Position numbers and translations under genes: made by a program. From positions 6,383-70,382 of the forward strand of contig CAZTXD010000001.1 in NCBI GenBank assembly GCA_964617995.1: a DNA stretch of 64,000 nt, given 5' to 3'. The notes below the pieces were generated by a model. It searched no databases, was not told where the DNA came from, and worked only from the letters and a program-made list of their open reading frames with translations. Positions 8,070 through 41,359 of the stretch are shown here, one piece after another. This DNA comes from an uncultured Acidimicrobiaceae bacterium. Its GTDB lineage: Bacteria; Actinomycetota; Acidimicrobiia; Spongiisociales; ZC4RG35. Every line of letters starts with the position of its first letter. Position 1 is the stretch's first letter.

Positions 8070-11000
8070 CTACGCCGACACCGCCCCCCGGCCAGTCCGT
8101 TGGATGGTGTCTTCCACCGCCACTACCTCCTTGCGCACCACCTGAGACGAACCACCCGGCTCCATCGTCACTCCGTAGAGGACGTCGGCTGCCTCCATCG
8201 TCTGCTGTTGGTGGGTCACGATCACGAGCTGGGCGTCGGCACGGAACGCGTCCATCAGTCGGAGGAATCGTCGCAGGTTGGCATCGTCCAGTGCGGCTTC
8301 CACCTCGTCGAGGAGATAGAACGGGCTGGGTCGTGCCTTGAACACGGCGAACAGGAACGCCAACGCAGCCAGCGACCTCTCACCACCCGAGAGCAGGCTC
8401 AGGTCACTCACCTTCTTCCCGAGAGGCTGGGCCTGGATCTCCACTCCGGTCTCGAGCGGATCCGAGGGATCGCTGAGGCGCAAACGTCCGGCTCCGCCCG
8501 GAAAGAGAACCGAGAAATGCTGTTCGTAGGCAGCGGCCACCTCCTCGAATGCCGCCAGGAACCGAGTCTGGATCTCCTCGTCGAGGGCACTCACGACCCG
8601 GCGCAGCTCCTGGCGGGACGTCTCCAGGTCGGCGAGCTGGTCGGTCAGGAACGTGTGCCTCTCGGCCAGCTCGGCGTACTCGTGGGCCGCGAGCGGGTTC
8701 ACCGGGCCCATGCGTCGGAACCTGGCAGTCATGTCGTCCAGCACGGCTTCGAGGTCGTCGTCGTCTTCGACGTCGGGAGCGGGAGCGGCGAGTGCGGTGT
8801 GCTCGTCGCTGTCGGCGTCCCGGCGCAGCGCCTCGGCGACGCCCTCGCGCCGGACCCGAATCTCGGTGGCCTCCACCTCCAGTTCCCCCAGTCGCTTCCG
8901 GGCCTGCTCCAGACGGGCTCGGGAGGCGTCATGCCTGGTCCTCACACCGTCGCGCTGCGACCCCGTGGCTGCGGCCCTCCGCCGCCACTCTGCCTGACGA
9001 TCCCGCAGCTCTCCCAGACGTCGGGAGAGGACATCGCCGGCACGACGGCCCAACTCCTCGATCAACGCCAAGCGCTCCAGCTCGGCGTCGCTCACGGGAG
9101 CCGCCATATCGCCCTCCAGCGAGGTGGCGACGTCCCGGCGTCTCCGCTCGGTGATCTGGAGCCGCTCCCGGGCGGCGCGTAGCTCCGCCGTCGCCTGCTG
9201 CCATGCCTCCCGGGCCCCCTCGCGCTCGGCCTCCAGAGCTGCCCGACGCTCCTCCATCTCATCCCATGCCCGCTGCCGCTCGGCTTCCTCACCCTCGAGG
9301 GCCGTGAGACGAGCCCGCAGCCGATGCAGGGTCACGCGACGATCATCGGAGATTTCTCGCAGAGACCGACGTCGTTCGGCCAGTCGCTGCAGCTCGTCTT
9401 CCAGGTTGGCCCGGCCGCGGGTCAACCGCCCCAGGGCCTCGGATGCGCCCGACAGCCGCGCTTCGACGGCCTCCAACTCCTCGAGAGCCTCCCGTTCCCG
9501 CTGGCGGCTGTGCTCGAAGTCCCTCCGTGCCGACGTGTGCAGCGAGGTGACGCGAGCCAGCTCCGTCTCAGCCTCCTCCAGTGCCCGCCCGGCCGCATCG
9601 ACCATCGTCGGCCCGGCTCCGTCCGGTTGCCCGACTCTCACACCGCTCACGGTCACCAGATCGCCTTCCGGCGTCACCACGCGCAGATGGGGGTGGCGGG
9701 CCGCGATTCGCAGCGCCATCGACCAGCCCTCCACGGCCAGGACATCACCGATCAGGCTCTCCATCAACTCTGCATCGTGGGCGGCTCCCACCAGATCCAC
9801 CAGCGCATCCACGCCCAACTCCGCCGCCGCATCACGGGCCGTTGTCGCCCGCTCACCGGAAGCCGTCACCGCTCCCAGACCCCCGAATCCCCCCGACTTG
9901 AGGAGGCCAACGGCACGCTCGAGGGATTCGTGATCGTCGAAGACGGCCGACCCGGCCCACGGTCCGAGGGCTGCATCCACCGCCGCCACCCACCGGGACG
10001 GAATGTCCATGAGACTCGTGAGCGTCCCCCGGTGGCCGGACGTGGCGGCGAGGGTCTCACGCGCCCGGGGGTCGACCGAACCCGCCGCCGACACGGCGTC
10101 GAGACGGGCCCGGCTCGAGGCAGAAGCCAGACGTGCTTCACCCAGGGCGTCTTCCATGGCTTCCCAGCGCTCCTGGCGGGATCTCCGCTCCGCGAGGGCT
10201 CGCTCGTAGGCGGCCTGACCGACCGTCGCCTGCTCGTCGAGACGGTGGATCTCGTCCTTGACACGCCCGGTCTCCTCCTCGTCGTCTCGGAGCTGGGCCT
10301 CGACGACAGCCATCCTCCTGTCGATTTGCTCCAGCTCACGGCTGTCGCGTCCCTCCGCCCCTTCGATGGAGCGCACCTCGCCGCGCAGCACCGCCAGCGC
10401 CCCCTCGGGGCTCAGGTTGCCCTGATCGAAGAGGGATCGTGCCTCGTCCTCGAGGGAACGAAAACGTTGCTCCCGACGGTGGGCGGCCGCCTCGGCCTCT
10501 GCGACCTCGGCGCCCACTTCGACCACCTGTCGATCCAGCAGCGTCAGCTCCTCGTCGAGGTCCCGTCGTCTCTCGTCGGCGCCCTCCCGACGTGCCTGCG
10601 CCGCCCGGTACCGTTCGTGGGCCACCGAGGAACTGCGCCGGATCCGCTCGAGCGTTGTCTCCAGACGGGCAGCAGCCGCCGTATCCCGGTCCAGCGCCTC
10701 GCCCACGTGGCCGGCCTCCGCCGTCAGGATGTGCAGAGCCGAGGCGAGCTCGCCCACCTCGGCCTCACCGTCGTTGATCCATCCCGTCAGGCGATCATGC
10801 TCAGCCGAGATGGCGGCCGATCGCTCGTCCAGCCGTCGAAGGCGTTGACCTCCCAAATAGAGTCGCAGCTCCTGGATCCTGGTTTCCAGCTCGGCTGCCT
10901 GCTCGGCGGCGTTCGCCTGGCGCTTCAACGGTCGCATCTGCCGGGTGATCTCGCCGGCGATGTCCTGGAGTCTCAGGACATCGGCGTCGGTTCGCTCCAG

Positions 11001-23817: not shown

Positions 23818-25995
23818 TCAGGCGCGGGCTTTGGTGAAGAGGCGCTCGACGTCCTCACCGAGGAGCGCGCGGATCTCCTCGGCCAGCTCGGGATGGCCCT
23901 CCAGGCCCGGGTCGTCATCGACGAGGGCGAACGCCTCCCGACGGGCCACCTCCAGCAGGTCGAAGTCGCGCAGGACGTCGGCGAGGTGCAGGTCGGTCAT
24001 ACCCGACTGGCGCATCCCGAACACGGTTCCTTGTCCCCTGATCCTGAGGTCCTCGCTGGCGAGGACGAATCCGTCGTTGGTGGAGACCATGGCGGCGATT
24101 CGGGCCTCGGCCTCCTCGGTGGACGGGTCGGCGATCAACCAGCACGTCCCCGGCTGGTCGCCCCGTCCCACCCGCCCCCGAAGCTGATGCAGCTGCGACA
24201 GGCCGAAGCGGTCGGCATCTTCGATGACCATGACCGTGGCGTTGGGAACGTCGATCCCCACCTCGATGACCGTGGTGGACACCAGCACGTCGATCTCCCC
24301 GCCCCGGAGAGCCGCCATCACCTCCTCCTTCTCCCGGGGTGGAAGCTGGCCGTGGATGAGACCGAGGCGGAGACCCTCCAGGACGCCCCGCAGCCGCTCG
24401 TACTCGGCAGTGGCGGACGCCGCCTCTACCTTGGGGCTCTCCTCCACCAGCGGACAGACGACGAAAGCCTGACGGCCACCGGCTGCCTCCCGGCGTACCG
24501 CCTCCCACACTCGTTCCTGGTGCTCTCCCCCCACTAGCTGCGTTGCCACAGGCGTCCTGCCCGGTGGCATCTCGTCGATGACCGACACGTCGAGATCGCC
24601 GTACAGGGTCATCGAGAGCGTGCGGGGAATGGGCGTGGCGGTCATGATCAGCAGATCGGGGTCTACACCCGAGGCTTTGTCCCGCAGCTCCACCCGCTGA
24701 GCCACGCCGAAGCGATGCTGCTCGTCCACCACCGCCACACCCAGCCGGTGGAACACGACTCCTTCCTGGATCAGGGCGTGGGTTCCCACCACGAGCTGAG
24801 CCTCTCCCGACCGTATCGCCTCCAGCACCTGGGAGCGGGAGGCGGACGGCCGATGGGACAGCAGCGCCCTGGTCCCGGTGAGGAGGGCGATGCGCACGGC
24901 GGGTGACTCGTGTTCGCCGAACAGCGATTCCATCCCCAAACCAGCTCCTTCGCCTTCGATCTCGGGGTCGAGACCTGCCAGGGTGAGGAGATCGCTCACG
25001 GCCAGGTAGTGCTGCTCGGCGAGCACTTCGGTGGGCGCCATGATCGCTCCTTGCCAATCCCCTTCCACTCCCGAGAGAAGCGTGGCCACCGCCACCACCG
25101 TCTTACCCGAACCCACCTCCCCCTGCAGCAGCCGATGCATGGCGTGGGGACGGCCGAGATCGGCATCGATCTCGGCCAGGACACGGCGTTGGGCGGCCGT
25201 GAGGTCATAGGGAAGGCCGGAGAGGAACCGGTCACGGAGGAACCGATCGCCGCTGTGGGCAACCCCCCGCGATTCGGTCTCCTGACGCTTCTTCTGCAGG
25301 GCCAGAGCAACCTCCAGCCGGAACAGCTCGTCGAACGCCAGCCGGTTCCTGGCCGGCTCGACATCCTCGATGCTGTCCGGGAAGTGGATCGCACCCAGCG
25401 CCCAGTCCCGGTCGACCACGGATGCGGTCTCCACGATCGCTGCCGGTACGACGTCGGGAACGGGCCGGCTGCGCTGCAAGGCGTTGTGGATCGCCCTTCT
25501 GATGACGCCCGGTGTCACCTCCCCGACAGCCGGGTGGATCGGCACGACCCTTCCCGTTGCCAGCGGCTCGCTCGGCGACGAGAGCTTGTCGACGGTGGGG
25601 TTCTTCATCTGCAGCCGCTTCCCGTACCGCTCGACCTTCCCCGACAACGCCACCTCCGAGTCGGTGTCGAGTTCCTGGGCGAGGTACGTCTGGTTGAACC
25701 AGACCGCCTTCATCGCCGAGCTGCCGTCGGTCACCGATGCTTCGACGATGGCCAGGTTGCGACGTGGCTTGCGCACCGACACCGTACGGACCTTCACGAC
25801 GACGGTCACTTCCTCGTCGAGGGGGATCTCCGCTATGGGCACTCTTCGGGAACGGTCGATGTAGGCCCGGGGAACATGCATCAGCAAGTCCCCCACCGTG
25901 TGGATTCCGGCCCGGTGCAGAGCGGCGCCCCGCTTGCCGCGGAGGCTCTTCACCTCGCCGACTGCAACCGACGCCAGACGGCTCAGCGTGGCCAC
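23818..25995 (-). CDS. recG: ATP-dependent DNA helicase RecG
   Basis: 725 aa. N-terminal wedge/OB domain and helicase motifs (GDVGSGKT, DEQHRFG). Confidence 0.9.
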   Translation of the reverse strand: MATLSRLASVAVGEVKSLRGKRGAALHRAGIHTVGDLLMHVPRAYIDRSRRVPIAEIPLDEEVTVVVKVRTVSVRKPRRNLAIVEASVTDGSSAMKAVWFNQTYLAQELDTDSEVALSGKVERYGKRLQMKNPTVDKLSSPSEPLATGRVVPIHPAVGEVTPGVIRRAIHNALQRSRPVPDVVPAAIVETASVVDRDWALGAIHFPDSIEDVEPARNRLAFDELFRLEVALALQKKRQETESRGVAHSGDRFLRDRFLSGLPYDLTAAQRRVLAEIDADLGRPHAMHRLLQGEVGSGKTVVAVATLLSGVEGDWQGAIMAPTEVLAEQHYLAVSDLLTLAGLDPEIEGEGAGLGMESLFGEHESPAVRIALLTGTRALLSHRPSASRSQVLEAIRSGEAQLVVGTHALIQEGVVFHRLGVAVVDEQHRFGVAQRVELRDKASGVDPDLLIMTATPIPRTLSMTLYGDLDVSVIDEMPPGRTPVATQLVGGEHQERVWEAVRREAAGGRQAFVVCPLVEESPKVEAASATAEYERLRGVLEGLRLGLIHGQLPPREKEEVMAALRGGEIDVLVSTTVIEVGIDVPNATVMVIEDADRFGLSQLHQLRGRVGRGDQPGTCWLIADPSTEEAEARIAAMVSTNDGFVLASEDLRIRGQGTVFGMRQSGMTDLHLADVLRDFDLLEVARREAFALVDDDPGLEGHPELAEEIRALLGEDVERLFTKARA

Positions 25996-26002
25996 CGGCC
26001 GG

Positions 26003-27625
26003 TCACTCCACTGAGATCAGATAGGGATACACGGGCTGTCCCCCCTCCACGGCCATCACCTCTATGCCGGGGTGGGTGTCGACGACCCAGGCCTCCAGCG
26101 CCTTGGTGTCGGAACGGGATGCCCCCTCGCCGGTGTAGACGGTGACCAGCTCCGCCTGACGGGGGAGGATCGCCGCCACCAGGCCCCGCAGCGTTGCGAA
26201 ACGATCCTGGTCGGCCACCACCACCCGCCCGTCGGCGACCCCCAGCCAGTCTCCCTCCTTCACGGTCCATCCGTCGACCTTGGCCGGGCGGACGGCCCGG
26301 GTCACTTCCCCGAAGTCGATGGCACCCGCCGCCACGGCCATGTCCTCCAGCAGGGCCTCCACGTCCGTGGCGCCGGGAACGTACCCGAGCATCGCCGCCA
26401 GACCCTGGGTGATACTGCGGGTGGGCACCACCTCCACCGTCTTCGTGGTCAGACCGTTCACCTGCTCGGCGACGGGAACGACGTTCTTGTTGTTGGGCAG
26501 GACCACCACCACCCGGGCGGGCGCATCCTCCACGGCGGCCAGCACGTCTTCCACGCTGGGGTTGGCGGTCTGGCCTCCCAGCACCACCTGCTGGACCCCG
26601 AGCCGGCGGAACCGCTCCACCAGCCCAGCCCCGTACGCCACCACCACCACACCTATCGGGGCCGCCAGCACCTCTGGCAGGGGGCTGAAGCCTCCGGCCG
26701 CCACATCCGCCTCCAGGGCGCCCACCTGGTCACGGAGATCGGTGATGCGGATTCCCCGGGGCCTCCCCGCTTCGACGCCTGCCTCGACGGCGGCACCGAT
26801 GTCGTCGGTGTGGATATGGCAGTTCCACAGTCCATCCCCACCCACCACCACGATCGAGTCGCCCATATCCGCCCAGCGTCGTCGGAACACCGCAACCTGC
26901 TCGTCGGGGGCCTCCAGGAAGTACATCACCTCGTATCGTGGCCCCAGGCGGCCGGCGCCGGTGGTGTCCACGAGAGCTGATTCGGGCTGAGCCGTGAGGA
27001 GCCGGTCGGGCAGCTCAGGCCCGGTGCCGGTCGTCACCTCCACGAACGCGGCCACCAGCAGCAGGTAGCCGGCCCCGCCGGCGTCGACCACCCCTGCCTC
27101 CTTGAGTGCCGGGAGCAGCTCGGGGGTCTCCTCCAGGGCGGAGACAGCGCGGGCATACACGGCATCGAGGAGGATTCCCAGGTCGCCTGCCCGGGTCCCG
27201 ACCTCGCTCGCCGCCTGGGCCGACGCCTCGAGGACGGTGAGAATGGTTCCCTCCACGGGCCGCTCGACAGCCCGATAGGCAGCAGTCGAGGCCGCCGCGA
27301 GAGCTTCGACCATGTCCTCTGCCTCCACCGTCCCTCGCGGACGCAGCGACTCGGCCAGGCCCCGCAGGACCTGAGAGAGTATCACCCCCGAGTTGCCGGC
27401 GGCTCCGACGAGGGACCCGTGCCCGAGAGCGGTCATCACCTCGTCCATGGTGCTGGCCTCCTCCAGGTGGCGAACCACCGAGTCGACCGTGGAAACCAGG
27501 TTGGAGCCGGTGTCACCGTCGGGCACCGGGTACACGTTGAGGTCGTTGAGGGCGTGCCGATAGGTGTTCAACAGCCTCTGATAGACCGAGAACACCTTCT
27601 TCACGTCCAGTGGTGACAAGCTCAC
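26003..27625 (-). CDS. DAK2-domain fusion protein YloV
   Basis: 540 aa. N-terminal Dak2-like domain ([11 protein letters not shown]). Lies immediately downstream of recG, the conserved yloV position. Confidence 0.75.
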
Positions 27626-27729
27626 GGGTTGGGAGGATACCGACCCGGCAGGGTGGCGTCCTCCAACTAGATTCGCTCCCGACTACACCCCGCGGGTATC
27701 CTTCTCCGTTCCCCAGGAGTTCCCCCGAA

Positions 27730-27918
27730 ATGTCATACCACTGTGAAATCTGTGGGAAGGGGCCCAGCTACGGCAAGTCCGTCAGCTTCTCCCACAAGCG
27801 CAACAACCGACGCTGGCTGCCCAACGTCCAGCGGATCCGTGTCCGGCATGGATCCAACACACGCCGGGCCCGGGTCTGCACCTCGTGCATCCGCGCCGGC
27901 AAGGTCGAGAAGGCCTGA
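27730..27918 (+). CDS. rpmB: 50S ribosomal protein L28
   Basis: 62 aa: [38 protein letters not shown]... is a typical L28 sequence. Confidence 0.85.
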
Positions 27919-27925
27919 TCGTCCC

Positions 27926-28144
27926 TTGGCCGTCCAGGGCGTCGTCCAGACCTACGATCCCGCCTCCGGAGTGGGTGTGGTCGTCAGGGACGACGACCAC
28001 CAGGAGGTCTACCTCCGGCCCGGCTCCCTGCGCGGCTCCATATTCCGCACCCTACGTCAGGGGCAACGGATCGTCTTCGACCTGACCGAGGAGGAGGGAT
28101 CCTCCTACGTCTCCAACGTACGGGTCGGCCAGGACTCCTACTGA
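27926..28144 (+). CDS. Cold-shock-domain-like small OB-fold protein
   Basis: About 72 aa with a TTG start 8 nt after rpmB. GVVQTYDPASGVGVVV...EVYLRPGSL...GQRIVFDL follows the cold-shock-domain spacing pattern. The start codon is uncertain. Confidence 0.4.
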   Translation: MAVQGVVQTYDPASGVGVVVRDDDHQEVYLRPGSLRGSIFRTLRQGQRIVFDLTEEEGSSYVSNVRVGQDSY

Positions 28145-28279
28145 CCCCTCACACCGTCGCCCTGAGCTGCCCGCCACCCACAGCTGCCTGCCGGCATTCG
28201 CCGCCGCGTTCGGTCCGGGGAGGCACGCCCGGGCAGCCACCGGTATAGTCCCCCACCACCCGAGACAACAGGAGGGTTA

Positions 28280-28513
28280 GTGGTTCAGGCCTATGTGCTC
28301 ATCCAGACCGAAGTGGGCAAGGCGGCCCTGGTTGCCGAAGAGGTCCGGGAGATTCCCGGAGTGGACACCGCCGACGACGTGACGGGCCCGTACGACGTGA
28401 TAGTCAAGGCCACCGCCGACGATGTGGATGCCCTCGGCAAGCTCGTTGTCGCCAAGATCCAGGCGATCGAGGGAATCACCCGGACCCTCACCTGCCCCGT
28501 GGTGAACCTCTAG
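28280..28513 (+). CDS. Stand-alone Lrp/AsnC ligand-binding (RAM) domain protein
   Basis: 77 aa. GTG start with an AGGAGGG ribosome-binding site 7 nt upstream. Shows a RAM-domain pattern. Confidence 0.5.
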   Translation: MVQAYVLIQTEVGKAALVAEEVREIPGVDTADDVTGPYDVIVKATADDVDALGKLVVAKIQAIEGITRTLTCPVVNL

Positions 28514-28525
28514 CCCACACCAGGG

Positions 28526-29605
28526 TCATCCCAGCTTGGAAGCAATGGTGCCGGCGTTGCGGAGAGCCGTCCCGTCCGAACCGCTGGTCGAGTAGCTGCG
28601 GGCAGGGGCCGCCGCCGCCTCCGCGACCATGTCCTCGAAGAGCCGCCGGCGCGCCAGAGGAGGGTCGATCCACAGGTACGCCGCCATCGAGCCGGGAATG
28701 GTGTTGACCTCGTTCACCCACAGCTCCCCCTCCCTCTCCAGGAAGTCGATCCGGGCGATGCCCCTGATCCCGGCCACCCCAGTTACCTGCCGTGCCAGGT
28801 CCCTCAACGACGCCGACACCTCGTCGTCGACACTCGCCGGGAGCTCTCTTCCCGACGACACCTCACCGCCCCACGCCAGGTATTTCTGGTCGTAGCCGTA
28901 GATGCCGCCCTCAGCCCGGGAGGGGGCCTCTATCGCCGAGAGTTCCACCGCAGGATGGGTGCGGACGGCTACCTGGAGGTCACGGCTACCGGCCAGGAAA
29001 GGCTCGACCACGCCCCCCTGGGCGTAGAAAGGGGAACGTTCGACCAGAGCGACCGCCGTTTCACGGTCCTCGACCACCTCGATGCCGATGGAAGAGCCCC
29101 CGAATCGCGGCTTGACGATGTAGGGCCCGTCGAAGGGAATGAGTGGCTCGGTCCGGGGTGCCAGGAGGATCCGGGAGAGGGTGGGGAGCCCGGCGACGGC
29201 CATCACCGCCCCGAACGCGAACTTGTCCATTCCCAGTGCAGATGCAGCCTGGCCGGGTCCCGTGTACTTGATCCGGGCCAGGTCGAGCGACCCCTGCAGG
29301 GTTCCGTCCTCCCCTGGCCCGCCATGGCAGGCGATAACGGCCACCTCGAAGTCGAGAGCCTTTCTCTTCTCGAGGAACCCGCCTCCCGGGGACGCCACGA
29401 ACGACAGCGAACGCGCTCTCCGGGGCACACCGTCGACGAAGTCCTCCGCCTCCGCGGCGGCGTCGACCCGATACCACTCCCCCGACTTCGCCCAATAGAG
29501 AGCCGCCGGGTCGCCGGGAAGCGCACGGGCGACCTGAAGCCCGGTCAGGATCGAGATGTCGTGCTCATCACTTGGCCCTCCGAAGAGGACGGCGGCCTCT
29601 GTCAT
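28526..29605 (-). CDS. ddl: D-alanine--D-alanine ligase
   Basis: 359 aa with ATP-grasp Ddl similarity along the whole length. Confidence 0.85.
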   Translation of the reverse strand: MTEAAVLFGGPSDEHDISILTGLQVARALPGDPAALYWAKSGEWYRVDAAAEAEDFVDGVPRRARSLSFVASPGGGFLEKRKALDFEVAVIACHGGPGEDGTLQGSLDLARIKYTGPGQAASALGMDKFAFGAVMAVAGLPTLSRILLAPRTEPLIPFDGPYIVKPRFGGSSIGIEVVEDRETAVALVERSPFYAQGGVVEPFLAGSRDLQVAVRTHPAVELSAIEAPSRAEGGIYGYDQKYLAWGGEVSSGRELPASVDDEVSASLRDLARQVTGVAGIRGIARIDFLEREGELWVNEVNTIPGSMAAYLWIDPPLARRRLFEDMVAEAAAAPARSYSTSGSDGTALRNAGTIASKLG

Positions 29606-29675: not shown

Positions 29676-30353
29676 GTGGATGGGCTCATCCTCCTGGTCG
29701 AAGACGATCGATCGATCCGCGAGATCACGCGGATCGGGCTCAGCGACGCCGGCTTCGGGGTCGTGACCGCCGCAGACGGAGACGAGGCACTCGCCTGCTT
29801 CCGCAAGGACCGACCCGACGCCGTGGTCCTGGACGTCATGCTGCCCCGCCGCGACGGCCTGGAGGTCCTGCGTTCGATACGGGAGTCGTCGGCGACGCCG
29901 GTGGTGATGCTGACGGCCCGGGACGGCACCAGCGATGTCGTGGTGGGCCTGGAGCTGGGAGCCGACGACTACGTGACCAAGCCCTTCGAGATGCCGATCC
30001 TGGTGGCCCGGTTGCGGGCCGCGCTGCGCAAGTCGGCCCGCACCGAAGGCCGGGAGTCATTGGCGGTCGGGGATGTCACAGTCGATGTGGGCGGACATCG
30101 TGTCGTCCGTGACGGCCGGGAGATCGACCTGTCGCCCACCGAGTTTCGGCTGCTCGTCGAGTTGGCGTCCCGACCCGGTCGGGTCTTCACCCGCGAGCTG
30201 CTGCTCGAGAACGTGTGGGGTTACCCCGCCGTCGGCGACACCCGCCTCGTCGACGTGGCGATCCAGCGGCTGCGAGCGAAGCTGGAACGAGACCCATCCC
30301 GACCGCAGCTGATCGAGACCGTACGCGGCTTCGGGTACCGCGCCGCCCGATGA
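29676..30353 (+). CDS. mtrA: OmpR-family response regulator, MtrA-like
   Basis: 225 aa from the GTG at 29676. Receiver domain (LLVEDD...D) plus a winged-helix domain. Precedes an HK and an LpqB-like lipoprotein. Confidence 0.7.
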   Translation: MDGLILLVEDDRSIREITRIGLSDAGFGVVTAADGDEALACFRKDRPDAVVLDVMLPRRDGLEVLRSIRESSATPVVMLTARDGTSDVVVGLELGADDYVTKPFEMPILVARLRAALRKSARTEGRESLAVGDVTVDVGGHRVVRDGREIDLSPTEFRLLVELASRPGRVFTRELLLENVWGYPAVGDTRLVDVAIQRLRAKLERDPSRPQLIETVRGFGYRAAR

Positions 30354-31792
30354 GCACGGGGGTAGGGCTTCGCCGCCGCCTCATCTGGTCCCTCATCGGC
30401 GTGATCGCAGTCACAGTCACGATCGTGGGGACGGCCTCCGCCGTCCTCGTCGATCGATCACTCCGCGGCCGTCTGGTGGCCAACGCCGTCGCCTCCGCCG
30501 AGTTCAATCTCACGGTCCTCGCTCCGGCCGCGGGGCTGGGGGCGTCACCGTCCGCGGCCCAGGTGGAGGACTCAGGAGTCCTCGACCGGATCCTGAGCCG
30601 GGAGATCGACGGGGTCTGGGTCGAGATGGACGACGGAGCGAGACTCTCAACCGGTGCCGGCCAGGCCGACGTATCCGACGATCTCCGTGAGATCGCCGAC
30701 GGCGGGGAGATCGGATATGAGTTCACGGGTTCGTTGCGTGGCCCGGTGCTGGTCACGGCGGCACGCCTGCCGCCCTCGGGACCGAACTTCTTCTTCGTCA
30801 CATCGACTGCGGCGATCTCCGACATCATCCGGCAGATCATCTGGGTGATCGCAGGTACAGGTACCGCCGCGGTTCTAATCGGCTCGTTGGTGGCGTCCGG
30901 GCTGGCCCACCGACTGCTCGTTCCGGTTTCGGCGGCACGGGAGGCCGCCGAGAGGATGGCGGACGGCGACCTCGGTGTGCGCCTGCCCGCAGGAGGCGGC
31001 GACGAGTTCGGTCAGCTATCGGACTCCTTCAACCGTATGGCCCGCTCCCTCAGCGAGACGATCGAAGAGCTGGAACAGGCCCGATCACGCGAGCGACGTT
31101 TCGTGGCGGACGTGTCCCATGAGCTGCGCACGCCACTGACCGGCCTGGTCAACGAGGCCCGGATCCTGGCAGACAAGCTGGGATCGGCGACCGAGGTCGA
31201 CGACGACCATCGCGCCATCGCGGCGATGCTCGACGGCGACGTCGCCCGGTTGCGTCATCTGGTCGAAGATCTGCTGGAGATGTCGCGCCTCGACAGCGGG
31301 GAGACGGGCGCCGAGATGACCGACGTGGACGTCACTGCTTTTCTGGAGGCTCTGGCGGGAGGCCGCCACCCGGGTGCGACCGTCGTCTCCGATGTCACCC
31401 ACCCGATCGCGACGGACCCGCGGGCGCTGGAGAGGATCGTGGGCAACCTCCTCGACAACGCCCGGCTGCACGCCCCCGGCGCGGAAACGACCGTCAACGC
31501 CTCCCTCCAGGCCCGCCATCTCGTAGTCGAGGTGGCCGACAGGGGCCCGGGTGTCGATCCCGACCGCCTCGATGGCCTCTTCGAACGTTTCTCCACCGGG
31601 GACCCGGCACGGAGCGCGGGTACGGGTCTGGGACTGGCGATCGCCTCCCAGCACGCCCATCGCCTCGGAGGCGACCTGCGAGCCGACCTCCGGCCGGGGG
31701 GCGGCCTGTCGATGACGCTCCGTGTACCTGTTGGGGAACTGTTACACGACGGTGACGGCTCTGCGATTCCTCTGCCTCACTCTGATGGATGA
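30350..31792 (+). CDS. mtrB: Sensor histidine kinase, MtrB-like
   Basis: 480 aa. Two TM helices, a HAMP domain, an H-box (VSHELRTPLTGL) and HATPase G-boxes. ATGA overlaps with both neighbours. Confidence 0.7.
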   Translation: MSTGVGLRRRLIWSLIGVIAVTVTIVGTASAVLVDRSLRGRLVANAVASAEFNLTVLAPAAGLGASPSAAQVEDSGVLDRILSREIDGVWVEMDDGARLSTGAGQADVSDDLREIADGGEIGYEFTGSLRGPVLVTAARLPPSGPNFFFVTSTAAISDIIRQIIWVIAGTGTAAVLIGSLVASGLAHRLLVPVSAAREAAERMADGDLGVRLPAGGGDEFGQLSDSFNRMARSLSETIEELEQARSRERRFVADVSHELRTPLTGLVNEARILADKLGSATEVDDDHRAIAAMLDGDVARLRHLVEDLLEMSRLDSGETGAEMTDVDVTAFLEALAGGRHPGATVVSDVTHPIATDPRALERIVGNLLDNARLHAPGAETTVNASLQARHLVVEVADRGPGVDPDRLDGLFERFSTGDPARSAGTGLGLAIASQHAHRLGGDLRADLRPGGGLSMTLRVPVGELLHDGDGSAIPLPHSDG

Positions 31793-33267
31793 AACTCGGA
31801 CAAGGAGTGATCTTGCGTAGGTTCATCCCTCTCATCTCCGTTCTGGCTCTCGTGTCGGCCTGCGGTTCATCGGGCGCTCAGAGCGGCGGCCCTCTGACGG
31901 TGCCGACCACGGCAACGACACCCGCCACGTCGCCGGGTCCGGACACGACCACCCCCCCGGTCAGTACCAGCACCGTGGTCACCGACAGCACTCCTACCAC
32001 CACCGTGCCGGGAACACCCACGACCGCCGGGCCCACCCAGCCGCGGGCGGCGACCATTACGGTCTTCTTCCTGAACGATTCGGGTGAGGCGATCCCGACC
32101 ACGCGCCCGACCACGACGAGCGCAGTGGCGAGGGCAGCTCTCGACGCTTTGATAGCCGGCCCCGACGCTCCCGAACACGCCGCCGGTCTTTCAACGGAGT
32201 TCCCCGCCGACAGCCTCGTCCTGGGCGTGGCCGTCTCCTCGGGTCTCGCCCGGGTGGACATGTCGCGGGAGTTCGAGGCGGGAGGTGGTTCGGCTTCGGT
32301 GCTGGGACGGCTTGCCCAGCTCGTCTACACGTTGACGGAGTTCGACAGCATCGATCGGGTCCAGCTGCTGCTAGACGGCGAGAGTATCGAGTACTTCTCC
32401 GGTGAGGGGGTGCTGGTCGGTTCGCCGCTCACCCGGAGCGACTTCACCGGAGCGGTGCCGATCGGGGCCACGCACGAGGGCTCGGGCTCGAGCACCTGGG
32501 ACCAGGACGACCTACCCATCGTGAGGATCGGAGATCCCGCCGTCCACAGGGTGGTCCTGGTCGCCGGCGACGACTTCCTCAACGTCCGTGACGCCGCCGG
32601 CGTGGAGGGAGAGATCATCGGGCGCTTGCTCGGCGGTGTGGCGGTTCGTACCACCGGTGAGTCGGCGACGGTGGGGTCATCGACATGGATGCGGATATCG
32701 ACCCCGGCGGGGCCGGGCTGGGTGAACGGGTTCTATCTCACCCGGTCTGTGGCCGGCGACGACTTCCCCGATGGCACCGACCCGTTGGCCGTGGTCGCGG
32801 AGCTGGCTGATCGGTTCGCCTCGGGTGAGGACTTCACCGACCTGGTGTCGAAGAAGGGCCTGTGGGTGGCTCATCACGACTCACCGATCCGGTTCCAGGT
32901 AGGGGAGATACGCGGACTCCTCGCCGATCCCACCACCTATCGTTGGGGCTCCAACGCCCTCGAACCCGGAAGCCCCGAGATCCAGCCCCGGACCTTCGCG
33001 GAGGCGGTGGCGGAGACATTCGTCGACACCTACGACGATCCCGACCGCCAACTTCACGTCAACCGGGCGGTGGAAGGGCCCAACGGACGTCCCGTCGAGT
33101 TCGCCGTACCCACCGAGTTCGGCGGATTCCCCTTCGTGGTCGTCTACGACCCCGGAGATGAAGCCCGTTATGAGGGTCTCGACTGGATGAGCTGGCTGGT
33201 GTCCCTCTCCTACGAGGATGGCGCGCTGAAGGTGGTGGGACTCACCATCGACCAGTGGGCTCCCTGA
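31789..33267 (+). CDS. lpqB: Lipoprotein LpqB-like (GerMN domain)
   Basis: 492 aa. Signal peptide with lipobox LVSAC, a Thr/Pro-rich linker and a GerMN domain. Completes the mtrA-mtrB-lpqB triad. Confidence 0.65.
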   Translation: MKLGQGVILRRFIPLISVLALVSACGSSGAQSGGPLTVPTTATTPATSPGPDTTTPPVSTSTVVTDSTPTTTVPGTPTTAGPTQPRAATITVFFLNDSGEAIPTTRPTTTSAVARAALDALIAGPDAPEHAAGLSTEFPADSLVLGVAVSSGLARVDMSREFEAGGGSASVLGRLAQLVYTLTEFDSIDRVQLLLDGESIEYFSGEGVLVGSPLTRSDFTGAVPIGATHEGSGSSTWDQDDLPIVRIGDPAVHRVVLVAGDDFLNVRDAAGVEGEIIGRLLGGVAVRTTGESATVGSSTWMRISTPAGPGWVNGFYLTRSVAGDDFPDGTDPLAVVAELADRFASGEDFTDLVSKKGLWVAHHDSPIRFQVGEIRGLLADPTTYRWGSNALEPGSPEIQPRTFAEAVAETFVDTYDDPDRQLHVNRAVEGPNGRPVEFAVPTEFGGFPFVVVYDPGDEARYEGLDWMSWLVSLSYEDGALKVVGLTIDQWAP

Positions 33268-33297: not shown

Positions 33298-34779
33298 TCA
33301 CGGATAGTGATCGGGGAGGTCGTTTTCGTAGAGGACGGTGTCTCCCTGCCCCAGATGCTCGCGCACCCAGGAGACGGCGTGGTCCCGGTCGGCCACCTGA
33401 GTCGTTCGCATCCCGGCCATCGAGGCACCCTCCGAGAGCGCCTCCCGGTTGGTGCTGCCCACCACCACGAGCTCGTCGGCGACGCGTCCCGCCTCGAACG
33501 CGAACGCCCGGTTCTCCTCGTGCTGGCGGGGCCCCAGCTCGACCATCCCCGGGGTGACCACCACCCGCCTCCCCGGCACGGGCATTTCCTCCAGGACCCG
33601 CAGTGCCGTCCGGGCACCCGCCGGGTTGGAGTTGAAGGTGTCGTCGATCACCACCACTCCCCGGGACCCCGTCACGACGGTACGCCTGTGCTCCGGTTCG
33701 GAGAGGCCGGGGAGACGCCGCGAGAGGGCTACCGGTTCGATACCCAATGCCACGGCCACGCCCACGGCGCAGGCGACGTTCCCGGGATGACCAGGGGAGG
33801 GGGCGTCGCCCACTGCCTCTCCACCGACCAACACCCGGCCATCCGCCACGGTGACGTCCAGCCCTTCGGCCGTCCCGACGCGAATCACCCTCCTCCGGGC
33901 CTCGTGGGTTTCGGCCAGGGTGGCCAGCCTCGGGTCGTCGACGTTGAGGACGGCGACGCGGGCTCCTTCCAGGATCTCCGCCTTGGCGGCTACGATTCGC
34001 TCCTCGGTCCGGAATCGCTCGAGGTGCACCGGTCCGATGGCTGTGATGACGGCGATGTCGGGGGGTATCCAGCTACAGAGATCGGCGATCTCCCCGGGGC
34101 CGTAGGTGCCCATCTCGGCCACGAACACGTCGACGTCACCAGCGAGATGCTCGTTCACGGCGCGAGCGAGCCCCATCCGGTTGTTGAACGAGGCCGGGCT
34201 CGCCAGCACACGTCGCTCCGATGCCAGCAGCTGGGCGACATATCCCTTCGTGGTCGTCTTGCCGTAAGACCCTGTGATGGCGACCACCTCGGCGCCCGAT
34301 CGTCGAAGCGCTGCCGCGGCCGTCGCCACCCACGGTCCTCCCAGGCGTCTCTCCAGGGGGGCGAGCACCGCCAGTGCGACATCGAAGAGCACCGGGAGCG
34401 CCGCCACCGTGACCGCCGCCACGACCGGCCGACTCGACCATCCGATCGAGAGCCCGACGGCGGCCATCGCCCCCACGGCAACCGCGAGTCGCCTGAGACG
34501 AGGGGTCCACGCCAGCGGCGAGGTTCGCCCCTTGACACCGAGACCGGGGGGCCCCATCGCCACCGCCACCGCTGCCACCAGCGCTGCCGGCGGCTGCCAG
34601 GTAGATGCGACCACGGCGACGGCGGTCAGGGCGGCCAGGGTCACAGCTCTGGAGTCGGCCGTCCACCAGCGCCGGGCGAACCTGATCACCGAGCCGGCCA
34701 GGTAGTGCTCTCTCTGCGCGACCCGCAGCCACCGCAGAGAAGACAGCACCGCCGAGCCTGCCAGGGCGACGACTATCAC
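33298..34779 (-). CDS. Membrane-anchored Mur-ligase-family protein (MurF-like)
   Basis: About 493 aa from the GTG at 34779, which overlaps the upstream stop (GTGA). About 190 N-terminal residues contain 4-5 TM helices. The Mur ligase P-loop ITGSYGKTTTK and a central/C-terminal domain follow. Confidence 0.6.
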   Translation of the reverse strand: MIVVALAGSAVLSSLRWLRVAQREHYLAGSVIRFARRWWTADSRAVTLAALTAVAVVASTWQPPAALVAAVAVAMGPPGLGVKGRTSPLAWTPRLRRLAVAVGAMAAVGLSIGWSSRPVVAAVTVAALPVLFDVALAVLAPLERRLGGPWVATAAAALRRSGAEVVAITGSYGKTTTKGYVAQLLASERRVLASPASFNNRMGLARAVNEHLAGDVDVFVAEMGTYGPGEIADLCSWIPPDIAVITAIGPVHLERFRTEERIVAAKAEILEGARVAVLNVDDPRLATLAETHEARRRVIRVGTAEGLDVTVADGRVLVGGEAVGDAPSPGHPGNVACAVGVAVALGIEPVALSRRLPGLSEPEHRRTVVTGSRGVVVIDDTFNSNPAGARTALRVLEEMPVPGRRVVVTPGMVELGPRQHEENRAFAFEAGRVADELVVVGSTNREALSEGASMAGMRTTQVADRDHAVSWVREHLGQGDTVLYENDLPDHYP

Positions 34780-35540
34780 GGACCGCAACCGGGGTTCCCT
34801 TCCAGCATCCTGATGACGGCGCTGCGCAGGGCTTCGGCTGCTTGGAGCGGCACATGGTGGCCGATGCCCTCCAGCACCTCGACCTCGACCGGAGACCCCG
34901 ACGACTCGACAATACGGGCGGCCTCGGTGGCGACCCCGACCGGCACCTCGGTGTCGTCGGCTCCCCATAGGAGATGTACGGGCACACCCAGCTTCGACAG
35001 CTCATCCTCGTAGGACTCGTTGACGGTCGCTACGAGGACCTCCCGCATCACCCCCGACGCCGACCGGTAGTCGTTGGAGCCGCGGCGACGCCGCTGTCTC
35101 TCCAGTGCGGCGTCGGAAACCACACCGATACGGTTGCCGAGCCGGATGATCCGGTACGCCAGGGTGGGCCGCCGCCCTGGCGCCGGCCGTACCAGCGGGC
35201 TGGCGGTCACGACCAGGCCTCTGGCCGACCCCGGATGATGAGCCTGACGAGTCACCGCCACCCGCCCCCCGAAGGAGTGACCCACCATCACAGGAGGCGC
35301 GTCGAACAGCTCCCACGCCGCGCCGATCAGCTCGGCGTAGCCGGCGGCGCCCATGGCCGTGGCCGGAGGAGGGGAGGCGCCGAAGCCGGGCAGGTCGATG
35401 GCGAGGGCATCGAGGCCCTCGAGAGCCGCCGCGAAGTCGGCGCCGCGTCTGGCCCAACCGTGGAGGGCCAGGACTCTCGGAGAGCCGCTACCGAACCTCT
35501 CCGCGAAGAGGGAACCGCCGTCGATCGTTATGAGAGGCAT
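34776..35540 (-). CDS. Alpha/beta-hydrolase fold protein
   Basis: 254 aa from an internal ATG (MPLITIDGGSLFAERFGSGSP...). Nucleophile elbow GHSFGG. The upstream part of the listed ORF is antisense shadow. Confidence 0.65.
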   Translation of the reverse strand: MPLITIDGGSLFAERFGSGSPRVLALHGWARRGADFAAALEGLDALAIDLPGFGASPPPATAMGAAGYAELIGAAWELFDAPPVMVGHSFGGRVAVTRQAHHPGSARGLVVTASPLVRPAPGRRPTLAYRIIRLGNRIGVVSDAALERQRRRRGSNDYRSASGVMREVLVATVNESYEDELSKLGVPVHLLWGADDTEVPVGVATEAARIVESSGSPVEVEVLEGIGHHVPLQAAEALRSAVIRMLEGNPGCGP

Positions 35541-35598: not shown

Positions 35599-37410
35599 AT
35601 GACGATCCCTATCAGAGTTCCCGGTTCGCCGGCCGACACCGGCGAGGGTTCGATGACGCGCTTTCGCGCGTCTGTCCAGCGCCGCTCGGTCGCCCTGGGT
35701 TGGATCGCCATAATCGTCCTCGCGGTCCAGGCGGTGAGGACATCGGTCTTCCAGGAGACACGCTTTCTCGTCCCGATAGTGGCGGTGGCCCTGCTGCTGG
35801 TCATATCCGCCCTCGTCGACTGGGATCGCCTCATGGCAAGCCGCCACGCCGGGTGGGCGGCCTGGGGCTGGATCGTCGGCGTGACGTTGTCCACCGGGGT
35901 GATGGCCACGGTGCCCGAGCTGGCATTGATAACCCAGCCCATCTTCTTCGGGCTGGTCGCTTTGTCGGGGTTGGTCCTGGAACGACCGAGACATGCCTTC
36001 GTGACCGTGCTCGCCTCGGCAACCGTCCTGCTGTCAGCCCTCCTCACCGGTTCGACCAACGATGTGACCGAGCTGATCGTCCCCCTCATGTCGTTGGCGA
36101 CCGTGGCGGTGGCCACGTCGATACTCGGTGTCGAGTTCGAGCGGGCAGTCGAGCGCAGCGGTCACCGGTTCGTCCAGCTCCAGCGCCAGCGTATCGACTT
36201 CGAACGGCTGTATGCCGTGATGGCGACACTGTCACAGGGTGATTCGCTGTCAGAGGTCCTTCCTCAGCTCGTGGGCACCATATGTCGCTATCTGGACGGC
36301 CAGGTGGGTGTGGTGCTCCTCTACGTTCCCGAGGATCACGCTCTCGAGGTGATGAGCCCGATCTGGGTGAACGGCTATCCCCTCGACATCGGCCGCACCC
36401 GGGTGCGGGTCGCCGAAGCGGGACTCCTCCCCCAGGTGTTCCGGTCGGGGCGTCCTGTTCTCGTGGATCCCGTCAACCCCGCCTCCGGCTCCCACGGCCT
36501 CCTGGCGGAACTGGGACTGGAACGTGCCCTGGTCGCCCCGCTGCGGGTGGAGCAGTTCTCGGTGGGGGTCATCGCCGTGGGTGACGCCGTCAGCGGTGCC
36601 TTCCGTCCGGAGCAGCTCGAGCAGCTCGCGTTCCTGGCCGGCCCCGCCGCCCTGGTCCTGTCCCAGATCGGTCGCTACGAGGAGCAGACGGAGATGAATC
36701 GCCGCCTCGAGGAGGTAGCTCAGATGAAGACCGATTTCGTGTCGGTGGTCAGCCACGAGCTGCGTACTCCCCTGACGTCGATCATCGGCTCACTCGACAC
36801 GGTCAACCGCCCCGAGCTCGCCCCCGAGGCCAACACCGCCCGGGAGCTGATCGTCACCGCCCGGCGCCAGGCCGGGCGTCTGCAGCGACTCATCGAGGAC
36901 CTTCTGATGGTGTCGCGAATCGACCGGGGAGCCATCCCCGTCAACCACGAGACCCTTCGTCTCACCACGGTGGTCGACCATGTGTCCACCGCCCTCCAGA
37001 TCCCCGAATCGATCTCCACCGAGATCCGACCGGAGGATCTGTCGGTGGTGGCCGACCGCGACCACCTGGAGCGCATCTTGATCAACCTGTTGGAGAACGC
37101 CTCCAAGTACGCCCCGGGTAGCCCCATCGAGCTGATCACCCGGATCCGGGGCGACATGGCCGAGATCCGCGTAGTCGACCACGGACCCGGGATCCCGCCC
37201 GATCAGCGAGAGCGGGTGTTCGAGCGCTTCACCCAGGTGGAGGCATCCCAGACCCGTTCGGTCGGGGGGACGGGGTTGGGCCTGTCGATCGTTCGCAGCC
37301 TCGCAGAGGTCATGGGTGGACGGGCCGACGTGGACGAGACACCGGGCGGCGGAGCCACCTTCATCGTCGACCTCCCTCTGGCTAGGCAGGCGGCTCCGAT
37401 CCCTCGTTGA
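35599..37410 (+). CDS. Orphan membrane sensor histidine kinase with GAF domain
   Basis: 603 aa. A polytopic N-terminus, a GAF-like region, HisKA (VSHELRTPLTS) and HATPase_c. No adjacent response regulator. The 3' end overlaps convergent fabI by 29 nt. Confidence 0.7.
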   Translation: MTIPIRVPGSPADTGEGSMTRFRASVQRRSVALGWIAIIVLAVQAVRTSVFQETRFLVPIVAVALLLVISALVDWDRLMASRHAGWAAWGWIVGVTLSTGVMATVPELALITQPIFFGLVALSGLVLERPRHAFVTVLASATVLLSALLTGSTNDVTELIVPLMSLATVAVATSILGVEFERAVERSGHRFVQLQRQRIDFERLYAVMATLSQGDSLSEVLPQLVGTICRYLDGQVGVVLLYVPEDHALEVMSPIWVNGYPLDIGRTRVRVAEAGLLPQVFRSGRPVLVDPVNPASGSHGLLAELGLERALVAPLRVEQFSVGVIAVGDAVSGAFRPEQLEQLAFLAGPAALVLSQIGRYEEQTEMNRRLEEVAQMKTDFVSVVSHELRTPLTSIIGSLDTVNRPELAPEANTARELIVTARRQAGRLQRLIEDLLMVSRIDRGAIPVNHETLRLTTVVDHVSTALQIPESISTEIRPEDLSVVADRDHLERILINLLENASKYAPGSPIELITRIRGDMAEIRVVDHGPGIPPDQRERVFERFTQVEASQTRSVGGTGLGLSIVRSLAEVMGGRADVDETPGGGATFIVDLPLARQAAPIPR

Positions 37411-39116: not shown

Positions 39117-40724
39117 TCACAGCAGCAGATCCGAGTACTGATCTCTCAGGACCTTCTTGTCGAACTTGCCGGTGCCGGTCTTGGGAATCTCGTCGACGAA
39201 GATCACCTTGTCGGGGAGCCACCAGGAGGCGACTCTCCCGGCCAGGAAGTCGACCAATGCCTCCTCTGTCACCTCCGAACCGGGGGCTCGGACCACGAAC
39301 GCCCCCGGTCGCTCCTGCCATTTGGCGTGTTTGAGCCCCACGACCGTTGCTTCGGCGACCCCGGGATGCGCCATCAGCGTGTTCTCCAGATCGAGCGAGG
39401 AGATCCACTCACCGCCCGATTTGATGACGTCCTTGGCCCGATCGGTGATGTGTATATAGCCCTCGGGATCGATCTTGCAGACGTCCCCCGTTCGCAGCCA
39501 GCCATCGACGAACGATCGAGGTGAACGCGGGTCCTGGTAGTACTCCGCCGCGATCCAGGGGCCCCGTATCAGCAGCTCACCGAAGGCCTCGCCGTCGTGG
39601 GGCAGGGATTCTCCGGCGTCGTCGACGATCCTCACCTGCAGCCCCGGTATCGGCAGGCCGGCCGTCTCCAGGTAGTCGAGCTTGCGCTCCCAGTCCCAGT
39701 CGGCCATGTGGGGCTTCAGTGTCGCCACCGATGCGACCGGGTTCGTCTCGGTCATACCCCACCCCTGCTGGACGAGGATTCCCCGGTTCCTCCAGTACCA
39801 GTCGATCATCGCCCGTGGCACCGCCGACCCACCACAGAGGAACGCCCGCATCGACGACAGGTCCGCCTCGGGATGGTCGGTGAGATACTGCTGAACGCCC
39901 AGCCATACCGTGGGCACACCGGCGGAGAAGGTGACCTTCTCCTCCGAGAAGAGGCGCACCAACCCCTCCGGGCTCAGGTCGGGACCGGGATAGGTGAGCT
40001 TGGCGCCTTGGGTGGTGGCCATGAATGGATAACCCCACGCCGCGGCGTGGAACATCGGTACCACCGGTAGGACGTTGTCGTCCGAACCGATGGGGAAGTT
40101 GGCCAGGTTGGAGACAGTGTGCATGTAGGTGGAGCGTTGGGTGTAGGCAACGCCCTTGGGATTGCCGGTGGTACCCGACGTGTAGCACAGCATCATCGGA
40201 GAGCCCTCGTCCAGCTCGGGCCATTCGTCGACCCCGTCGGCACCTTCGATGAGCTCCTCGTAGGCGACGGACCCGGGGAGGCGCTCGTCCGCCTCGTCGC
40301 CCATCACCACGAAATGCTCCACCGTGGGCAACTCGGGAACGAGCGGAGCGAGGAGTGACACGAGATCGGGATCGACGAAGAGTGCCTTGTCGCCCGCATG
40401 ACCCACCACATAGGCGATCTGGTCGGAGAAGAGGCGGATGTTGACGGTGTGGCAGATCCGCCCGGTGTTGGCCAGGGCCCAGTAGAGCTCGTGATGGCGG
40501 ATGTTGTTCCAGGCAAAGGTCCCCACCGCCTCTCCCGTCTCGACTCCGAGCCTGCTCTCCAGGGCGGAGGCCAGGCGGCGGATCCGCTGATCGGTATCCC
40601 GGTAGGTGGTGTGAGACACGGTCAGGTCGTGCTCGACCGACACGATCTCGCGATCGGGATGGAGCCGCACCGCCCGGTCGTAGAGGGTGGACAGGAGCAG
40701 CGGGAAGTCCTGCATGTGGGACAT
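39117..40724 (-). CDS. fadD: Long-chain fatty-acid--CoA ligase (AMP-dependent synthetase)
   Basis: 535 aa with the AMP-binding motif YTSGTTGNPKGV. Confidence 0.85.
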   Translation of the reverse strand: MSHMQDFPLLLSTLYDRAVRLHPDREIVSVEHDLTVSHTTYRDTDQRIRRLASALESRLGVETGEAVGTFAWNNIRHHELYWALANTGRICHTVNIRLFSDQIAYVVGHAGDKALFVDPDLVSLLAPLVPELPTVEHFVVMGDEADERLPGSVAYEELIEGADGVDEWPELDEGSPMMLCYTSGTTGNPKGVAYTQRSTYMHTVSNLANFPIGSDDNVLPVVPMFHAAAWGYPFMATTQGAKLTYPGPDLSPEGLVRLFSEEKVTFSAGVPTVWLGVQQYLTDHPEADLSSMRAFLCGGSAVPRAMIDWYWRNRGILVQQGWGMTETNPVASVATLKPHMADWDWERKLDYLETAGLPIPGLQVRIVDDAGESLPHDGEAFGELLIRGPWIAAEYYQDPRSPRSFVDGWLRTGDVCKIDPEGYIHITDRAKDVIKSGGEWISSLDLENTLMAHPGVAEATVVGLKHAKWQERPGAFVVRAPGSEVTEEALVDFLAGRVASWWLPDKVIFVDEIPKTGTGKFDKKVLRDQYSDLLL

Positions 40725-41359
40725 CAGGTCACCTCGTTGCCGAGAGCGCGCTTCTCCGCCTCGAACTCCTCATCCGTCAGCTTCCCTTCGTCGTGCAAGC
40801 GGGCCAGTATCTCGAGCTGTTGTGCCTTGGAGATCGTGCCGGCGTCGCCCCGTTCCAGTTGCATCATCCGCTCCTCCCGTACCCGATAGATGACCGTCTG
40901 CATGTCCTCCGGCTTGGGGACGTCGCGGTAATGGCTTTGGCCCATCTCCCCCGCCGACTCGATGAGGAGGTCACCGGATCGGATCATCCTCTCCCAGAGA
41001 GACTGCTGGAACGACACATCGTTGATGACCTCCAACGGGATCTCCTTGCCTTCCCGCGACAGGATCCCGGCGCGATAGATGACCCTCTCGTTGGTGATGA
41101 CGTGTTGGGTGAACCACCAGGCCAGCAGGCCCCGGATGACGAGCAGCACCCAGATCACCCCCAATCCGAGCATCACCCAGCCGCGGTACTCGAAGTCGAA
41201 TAGCGTGGCGAGGAGCACGAGGATGACCACCACGGCAACGCTGAGGACGATCTCCTTGATGATCCGGCTCCAGTGGGGCCGGAAGTCCATCACGACTTCC
41301 TCGTCGGGGCTCAGTAGACGTTCCGGGTAGGCCATGGGGGCAGCATACTCAGCGACCAC
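40724..41359 (-). CDS. Membrane bPH_2 (YdbT-like PH) domain protein with C-terminal SHOCT domain
   Basis: 211 aa. Two TM helices, a PH-like region, and C-terminal SKAQQLEILARLHDEGKLTDEEFEAEKRAL (SHOCT). Its stop overlaps the fadD ATG (TGATG). Confidence 0.5.
   Translation of the reverse strand: MVAEYAAPMAYPERLLSPDEEVVMDFRPHWSRIIKEIVLSVAVVVILVLLATLFDFEYRGWVMLGLGVIWVLLVIRGLLAWWFTQHVITNERVIYRAGILSREGKEIPLEVINDVSFQQSLWERMIRSGDLLIESAGEMGQSHYRDVPKPEDMQTVIYRVREERMMQLERGDAGTISKAQQLEILARLHDEGKLTDEEFEAEKRALGNEVT

Follow-up and report, generated by a model that had tools for sequence, protein, structure and literature searches.

A membrane-integral ligase of the MurF type, encoded beside an alpha/beta hydrolase in Acidimicrobiia and other phyla

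The 64,000-nucleotide stretch of DNA analysed here (the window; contig CAZTXD010000001.1, positions 6,383 to 70,382, from an uncultured Acidimicrobiaceae bacterium) carries a pair of overlapping genes for an alpha/beta hydrolase and a Mur-family ligase. We find that both are part of a widespread module of three genes, for a serine hydrolase, a membrane-embedded MurF-type ligase and a D-alanyl-D-alanine (D-Ala-D-Ala) ligase, Ddl. The ligase has a membrane domain instead of domain 1 of MurF, the one that binds uridine diphosphate (UDP), and in Poribacteria the whole module occupies the position of murF among the cell-wall genes. The module is probably an alternative way to finish the cell-wall precursor.

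Domain architecture of the ligase

Pfam recognises the central, ATP-binding domain and the C-terminal domain of Mur ligases in the protein (Table 1), while neither Pfam nor NCBIfam finds an N-terminal Mur domain. The central domain holds the P-loop T169-G-S-Y-G-K-T175, with TGSYGKT columns invariant in the family alignment, and the C-terminal domain shows the motifs DDTFNSNP and VTPGMVELG. At the very C-terminus ENDLPDxY is kept across nearly all sampled phyla. The best NCBIfam model is that of murF (TIGR01143; 188.9 bits over profile positions 64-402 of 418), and six distant homologues from other phyla behave in the same way, with 195-270 bits and a profile start at 60-72. The closest sequences of solved structures in the PDB are all MurF, with T. 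maritima MurF at the top (3zl8; 8.9e-29), and these chains align to the ligase only from their residues 79-90 onward. A full-length model (predicted local distance difference test, pLDDT, 91; predicted template-modelling score, pTM, 0.85) retrieved in Foldseek the MurF structures 4qf5, 3zl8 and 4cvm as top matches, with MurD, MurE, MurC, pseudomurein ligases, cyanophycin synthetase and MurT ranked lower (MurT 40th). By family profile, solved sequence and fold the ligase is nearer to MurF than to MurC, MurD, MurE, MurT, FolC or the cyanophycin synthetase CphA, and since MurF leads all three comparisons, the catalytic body is of the MurF type. The preliminary description of this DNA had called the ligase MurF-like and outside the canonical domain plan, leaving its exact place among MurF, MurT, FolC, CapB and cyanophycin synthetase to profile and structure comparisons; both place it closest to MurF, and Pfam, NCBIfam and the PDB alignments agree that the canonical N-domain is wanting.

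What is found instead of that domain? Residues 1 to about 150 show five hydrophobic peaks, a modest signal in an Ala-rich genome of 68% GC (guanine plus cytosine), and the peaks are clearer in low-GC homologues, where the Kyte-Doolittle means over 19 residues reach 2.1-3.0. AlphaFold2 folds the region into a helical bundle (helices 2-23, 43-58, 65-75, 93-115 and 118-159) with a pLDDT of 95. Peaks and modelled helices together support a membrane-embedded N-terminus, as had been proposed from the first reading of the DNA, although the block extends over some 150-165 residues with five helices and not over about 190. The domain matched no Pfam family and no solved fold. Six of its positions, Q22, Y26, T92, R94, P141 and E143, vary hardly or not at all (our residue statistics cover 80 loci for the ligase and 78 for the hydrolase, and the module statistics given below cover 84 related loci). 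The conserved polar residues on the cytoplasmic face of the domain (Q22, Y26, T92, R94 and E143) probably form a new acceptor-binding site beside the catalytic cleft. A protein of 472 residues from a Clostridia metagenome-assembled genome (MAG; locus L058, 8692-10110) lacks helices two and three and keeps Q-x3-Y, T-x-R and P-x-E.

The hydrolase partner and its coupling to the ligase

The DNA at the junction of the two genes, read directly, is GGTCCGTGATAG. The GTG start of the ligase does overlap the stop of the hydrolase in a GTGA, as first described, and we read this overlap as translational coupling of the ligase to the hydrolase. An overlap of four nucleotides between stop and start recurs in 36 of 80 hydrolase-ligase pairs (the window included), and most of the other pairs leave only 0-40 nucleotides between the hydrolase stop and the ligase start. 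One Poribacteria locus (L050, 8144-9812) has a gap of about 1.6 kb between the two genes, compared with at most about 0.2 kb in the other loci of that phylum.

The hydrolase has a Ser89-Asp196-His228 triad that is conserved in all 78 loci, with the serine in a GHSFGG nucleophile elbow, and the lid motif G154-S155-x-D157-Y158 is likewise invariant. Because the triad is invariant, we read the protein as an active enzyme travelling with the ligase. In a public gene call the hydrolase begins at ATG 35600 (274 residues), a start that would overlap the start of the divergent GAF-domain histidine kinase gene at 35599; alignments of the homologues begin near ATG 35540. Three apparent hydrolase-ligase fusions from the search of representative proteins (P0181, P0228 and P0258) were set aside, since their Arg-rich junctions suggest read-through across a frameshift; P0258 in addition lacks the segment with the catalytic histidine.

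Distribution of the family and the three-gene module

More than 100 full-length homologues with the same architecture, at 53-71% identity, come from Acidimicrobiia MAGs among the matches listed. The membrane domain alone, searched against 1.84 billion representative proteins, gave 269 clusters. Full-length proteins, of about 500 residues, have it at the N-terminus, and the few internal placements that we read look like frame-shifted read-throughs. A genome scan with one genome per species, for which DDTFNSNP and VTPGMVELG served as family-specific patterns, confirmed at least 590 species-level genomes as relatives. Besides Acidimicrobiia these include Nocardioides, Gracilibacillus, Butyrivibrio, many Clostridia, Bacteroidales, Acidobacteriota, Poribacteria, Chloroflexota, Thiomargarita and the alphaproteobacterial genera Labrys and Blastochloris. 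The five-helix N-terminus, Q-x3-Y, L-x2-T-x-R, P-x-E and ENDLPDxY are common to nearly all members, so that the fusion of membrane domain and ligase, whose phylogenetic spread had been raised as a question, extends over many phyla. The proteins are annotated automatically as MurF or 'Mur ligase family protein'. A search of plasmids returned only canonical plasmid-borne copies of murF and no transmembrane form, and the literature searched, including surveys of the division and cell wall (dcw) cluster and of division genes in Firmicutes, gave no description of a transmembrane MurF or of the three-gene module.

A hydrolase-like match adjoins the ligase in 79 of the 84 loci, which extends to the family the coupling first noticed in the window, and a Ddl-like match lies near the ligase in 68. 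The three genes follow each other on one strand as hydrolase, ligase and Ddl in nearly all loci, several of the exceptions being contig ends; the roughly 80 loci with this order represent eight phyla or more. The outer flanks differ from locus to locus and nothing else is conserved around the module. Six loci (L033, L034, L042, L048, L052 and L072) have a second, weakly Ddl-like ATP-grasp match beside the module, with 25-37% identity to the Ddl of the window.

Position of the module relative to the dcw cluster

Four Poribacteria genomes show the order rsmH-ftsI-murE-[hydrolase-ligase-ddl]-mraY, with murD-ftsW-murG beyond mraY in three of them (identities confirmed by NCBIfam for locus L051), and here the module fills the murF slot. 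One Chloroflexota chromosome has hydrolase-ligase-mraY-ddl, the ligase gene standing directly before mraY. In one Clostridia MAG the order is murC-hydrolase-ligase-ddl...murE-mraY-murD, with the module after murC and 1.2 kb upstream of murE; murE and mraY overlap, with no murF between them. An alphaproteobacterial MAG (L063) has ftsI-murE-mraY-murD-ftsW-murG-murC-murB with a single open reading frame (ORF) of 152 residues between murE and mraY in a cluster of otherwise standard order, and the module, convergent to murB, abuts that gene in the usual place of ddl. That ORF (9474-9932) matches no family and sits in the usual murF position. The murF slot in Poribacteria and the murF-less murE-mraY junctions in the two MAGs are the reason for which we think that the module most likely does the job of MurF itself.

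Genes around the pair in the window

In the window the third gene of the module stands apart: ddl lies 3.7 kb from the ligase, with mtrA-mtrB-lpqB, convergent with the ligase, in between (Table 1). The layout given in the preliminary description (ddl at this distance, mtrAB-lpqB convergent, the kinase gene divergent) agrees with the coordinates, and its link to ddl proves stronger than claimed, since in most relatives ddl is the very next gene after the ligase. Its link to mtrAB-lpqB fares differently. Only this organism among the 84 loci has these genes between ligase and ddl, and ten related loci with the same kinase neighbour have ddl immediately downstream of the ligase; we therefore rejected any regulatory meaning of this adjacency and see no functional meaning in that neighbourhood. 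By gene order, we take mtrAB-lpqB to be a recent local rearrangement, that is, a lineage-specific insertion that split an operon.

The best NCBIfam match of the window Ddl is TIGR01205, at 190.9 bits against a cut-off of 245.65, which the module Ddls of Poribacteria and Chloroflexota pass. Together with YloV/DAK2 and recG it forms the order ddl, YloV/DAK2, recG (23818..29605), which resembles the housekeeping ddlA-Rv2974c-recG region of mycobacteria; because of this resemblance the ddl of the window would seem to be the housekeeping copy. Many Acidimicrobiia loci (L003-L007, L008-L023), like the window (40724..41359), have a gene for a membrane protein of the bPH_2/SHOCT type at a distance of a few kb from the module; in B. 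subtilis the bPH_2 genes ydbS and ydbT lie near ddl-murF. No dcw genes were found in the 64 kb.

Table 1. Features of the ligase-hydrolase pair and its neighbours (window coordinates)
Feature	Position	Strand	Remarks
Gene of the membrane-integral MurF-type ligase	33298..34779	-	493 aa from GTG
N-terminal membrane domain, residues 1-150, five helices	34330..34779	-	cytoplasmic-face motifs Q22-x3-Y26, L89-x2-T92-x-R94, P141-x-E143
Mur ligase central (ATP-binding) domain, residues 168-307	33859..34278	-	PF08245 Mur_ligase_M, 1.1e-29
Mur ligase C-terminal domain, residues 364-483	33331..33690	-	PF02875 Mur_ligase_C, 2.7e-15
Family-specific C-terminal signature VLYENDLPDHYP	33301..33336	-	invariant within the class
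GTGA overlap: ligase GTG (34779..34777), hydrolase TGA (34778..34776)	34776..34779	-	read in DNA
Gene of the alpha/beta hydrolase, 254 aa	34776..35540	-	Pfam Abhydrolase_6/1
ddl, for the D-Ala-D-Ala ligase; third module gene by ancestry, here apart	28526..29605	-	TIGR01205 best NCBIfam match
mtrA-mtrB-lpqB, convergent with the ligase, outside the module	29679..33267	+	MtrA 285 bits
GAF histidine kinase gene, divergent from the hydrolase	35599..37410	+	kept in closest clade only
YloV/DAK2	26003..27625		beside window ddl
recG	23818..25995		beside YloV/DAK2

Proposed role of the module

What is the role of the ligase then? On account of the dcw placement, of a catalytic body that is of the MurF type and of Ddl as a partner, we consider it more likely than not that the ligase is the D-Ala-D-Ala-adding enzyme of this genome in membrane-integral form, and it may be the main or even the only MurF there. 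It would be the Acidimicrobiia member of a widespread membrane-integral MurF and would catalyse the MurF chemistry, in which D-Ala-D-Ala is added to the cell-wall precursor that carries a tripeptide on N-acetylmuramic acid (MurNAc). Translated in a fixed ratio with the Ser-Asp-His hydrolase, and ancestrally co-transcribed with ddl, the product of which makes its dipeptide substrate, the membrane-anchored ligase would complete the pentapeptide precursor beside MraY. For the hydrolase our best guess, by analogy with other precursor-editing hydrolases that are known, is the editing or trimming of mis-made precursor termini. The preliminary description had suggested a non-canonical module for peptide ligation or cell-wall modification; the first half is in keeping with a ligase of the MurF type, and the idea of an accessory modifying system sits badly with placement in the murF slot. 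The case that it named as a refutation, a murF simply extended at the N-terminus, would not describe the protein even if this were the only murF of the genome: a conserved membrane domain has replaced the UDP-binding domain, and an active hydrolase is nearly always encoded next to it.

Several observations weigh against this assignment. The score of the ligase lies below the murF cut-off of TIGR01143 (288.6), at least part of the shortfall arising because the N-domain is missing and the alignment begins only at position 64. Canonical MurF chemistry does not explain a conserved hydrolase partner. None of the Acidimicrobiia loci seen has the module inside the dcw cluster. Finally, isolates of Nocardioides, Gracilibacillus, Labrys, Blastochloris and Butyrivibrio have the family, and these genera are expected to have a canonical murF; if they do, this would suggest that a normal MurF can be present beside the family, the role of which may then be a different one.

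The last two points lead to the first alternative, possible but in our estimate unlikely, that the ligase is an accessory paralogue beside a canonical soluble MurF, engaged in membrane-level repair or recycling of stem peptides or in buffering stress directed at D-Ala-D-Ala. The hydrolase could, for example, trim tetrapeptides or aberrant termini to the tripeptide and the ligase could add D-Ala-D-Ala again, a trim-then-religate logic which the invariant triad suits; the VanX/DdpX-like dipeptidase encoded directly upstream of the module genes in Labrys points the same way, as do the position outside dcw in Acidimicrobiia and the scattered isolates just listed. It is difficult to reconcile such a role with a trio placed between murE and mraY in Poribacteria and with murE-mraY junctions without murF in the Clostridia and alphaproteobacterial MAGs. 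An adjacent ddl that resembles a housekeeping copy, and the retention of the module by one lineage of the family with 37% GC, also speak against it. In the Labrys okinawensis locus (L066), the match of the gene for this homologue of D-Ala-D-Ala dipeptidases (8311-9120), upstream of hydrolase and ligase, has 64 bits and is below the cut-off; no ddl is nearby.

A second alternative concerns the acceptor. It could be lipid-linked, undecaprenyl-pyrophosphate-MurNAc-tripeptide (lipid I or II), instead of UDP-MurNAc-tripeptide, so that MraY would act before MurF. We regard this as doubtful; the estimate is for the acceptor only, and being compatible with a main as well as an accessory role, it is not to be added to those for the other readings. 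The loss of the UDP-binding domain would fit such an acceptor, and so would the membrane domain that replaces it, whose cytoplasmic interface has invariant Thr, Arg, Gln, Tyr and Glu, and the Chloroflexota gene directly before mraY is in keeping with it. There is also an analogy with MurT, which is devoid of the N-domain and acts on lipid II. This is however an argument from structure alone, and it is just as conceivable that the membrane domain binds UDP-MurNAc or only tethers the enzyme near MraY. If the acceptor were lipid-linked, the pathway might be re-ordered, a tentative scheme to which we give low weight: MraY would transfer MurNAc-tripeptide to undecaprenyl phosphate, lipid I or II would next receive D-Ala-D-Ala from the membrane MurF, and the hydrolase would edit wrong termini.

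Two further readings fare worse. It is improbable that the module acts outside peptidoglycan, joining the dipeptide made by Ddl to some other membrane-bound carboxylate, for instance of a lipid or polymer, after the hydrolase has exposed it: an N-terminal domain with no known relatives and the existence of non-wall members of the Mur superfamily would allow it, but the closest relatives in sequence and fold are all MurF and the module stands among murE, mraY and murD in several phyla. That the hydrophobic N-terminus is an untranslated artefact of a wrong start codon, a concern in high-GC DNA, where spurious ORFs and Ala/Val-rich stretches are frequent, is refuted for practical purposes, because the region is conserved as protein from 37%-GC to 75%-GC genomes, invariant motifs included, and is modelled by AlphaFold2 with very high confidence.

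Comparison with known ligases and significance

The ligase described here shares with MurF (UDP-MurNAc-tripeptide:D-Ala-D-Ala ligase, EC 6.3.2.10) the central and C-terminal domains, for which MurF is the best match by sequence as well as by fold, the P-loop, motifs of the DxxNxNP type, ddl as genomic partner and, in its Poribacteria orthologues, the slot between murE and mraY. It differs in having a five-helix membrane domain of 150 residues instead of the N-terminal UDP-binding domain, in the family-specific ENDLPDxY, in the hydrolase gene that adjoins it almost everywhere and in a score under the NCBIfam cut-off. The MurT/GatD complex, which amidates the iso-glutamate of lipid II, likewise has a Mur-type ligase without the canonical N-domain, active at the membrane together with a partner enzyme that is encoded beside it; MurT, however, is soluble, with a DUF1727 C-domain and a glutaminase partner, in contrast to the five transmembrane helices, the Mur_ligase_C domain (by Pfam) and the serine-hydrolase partner in our case. 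PgsB/CapB and cyanophycin synthetase have the Mur ligase core in common with it, and PgsB is membrane-associated; in NCBIfam the ligase had no match to PgsB and only a marginal one to CphA models (E ~1e-5, far below the cut-offs).

Fusions of Mur ligases to other modules, of wall synthesis or of the membrane, do occur, as in the natural cases MurE-MurF, MurD-FtsW and MurG-MurC, and in a linker-less MurE-MurF chimera the MurF N-terminus is without its 'cap' region (PMC10214165). Our ligase resembles these fusions in principle and differs from them in that no wall-synthesis protein can be recognised in its membrane domain; its architecture is absent from the survey of such fusions (PMC10214165).

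A membrane-integral MurF with no nucleotide-binding domain should be moderately to highly surprising to specialists in wall synthesis. MurF is a textbook soluble enzyme of three domains and an antibiotic target, and if our reading is correct, inhibitors and models based on the canonical enzyme may not carry over to the lineages with this module. A hydrolase that is uncharacterised, and of a fold type not yet linked to precursor synthesis, would then act in the pathway. Organisms that carry the module would have the cytoplasmic stage of wall synthesis physically joined to the membrane stage, which raises the question whether D-Ala-D-Ala may be added on a lipid carrier.

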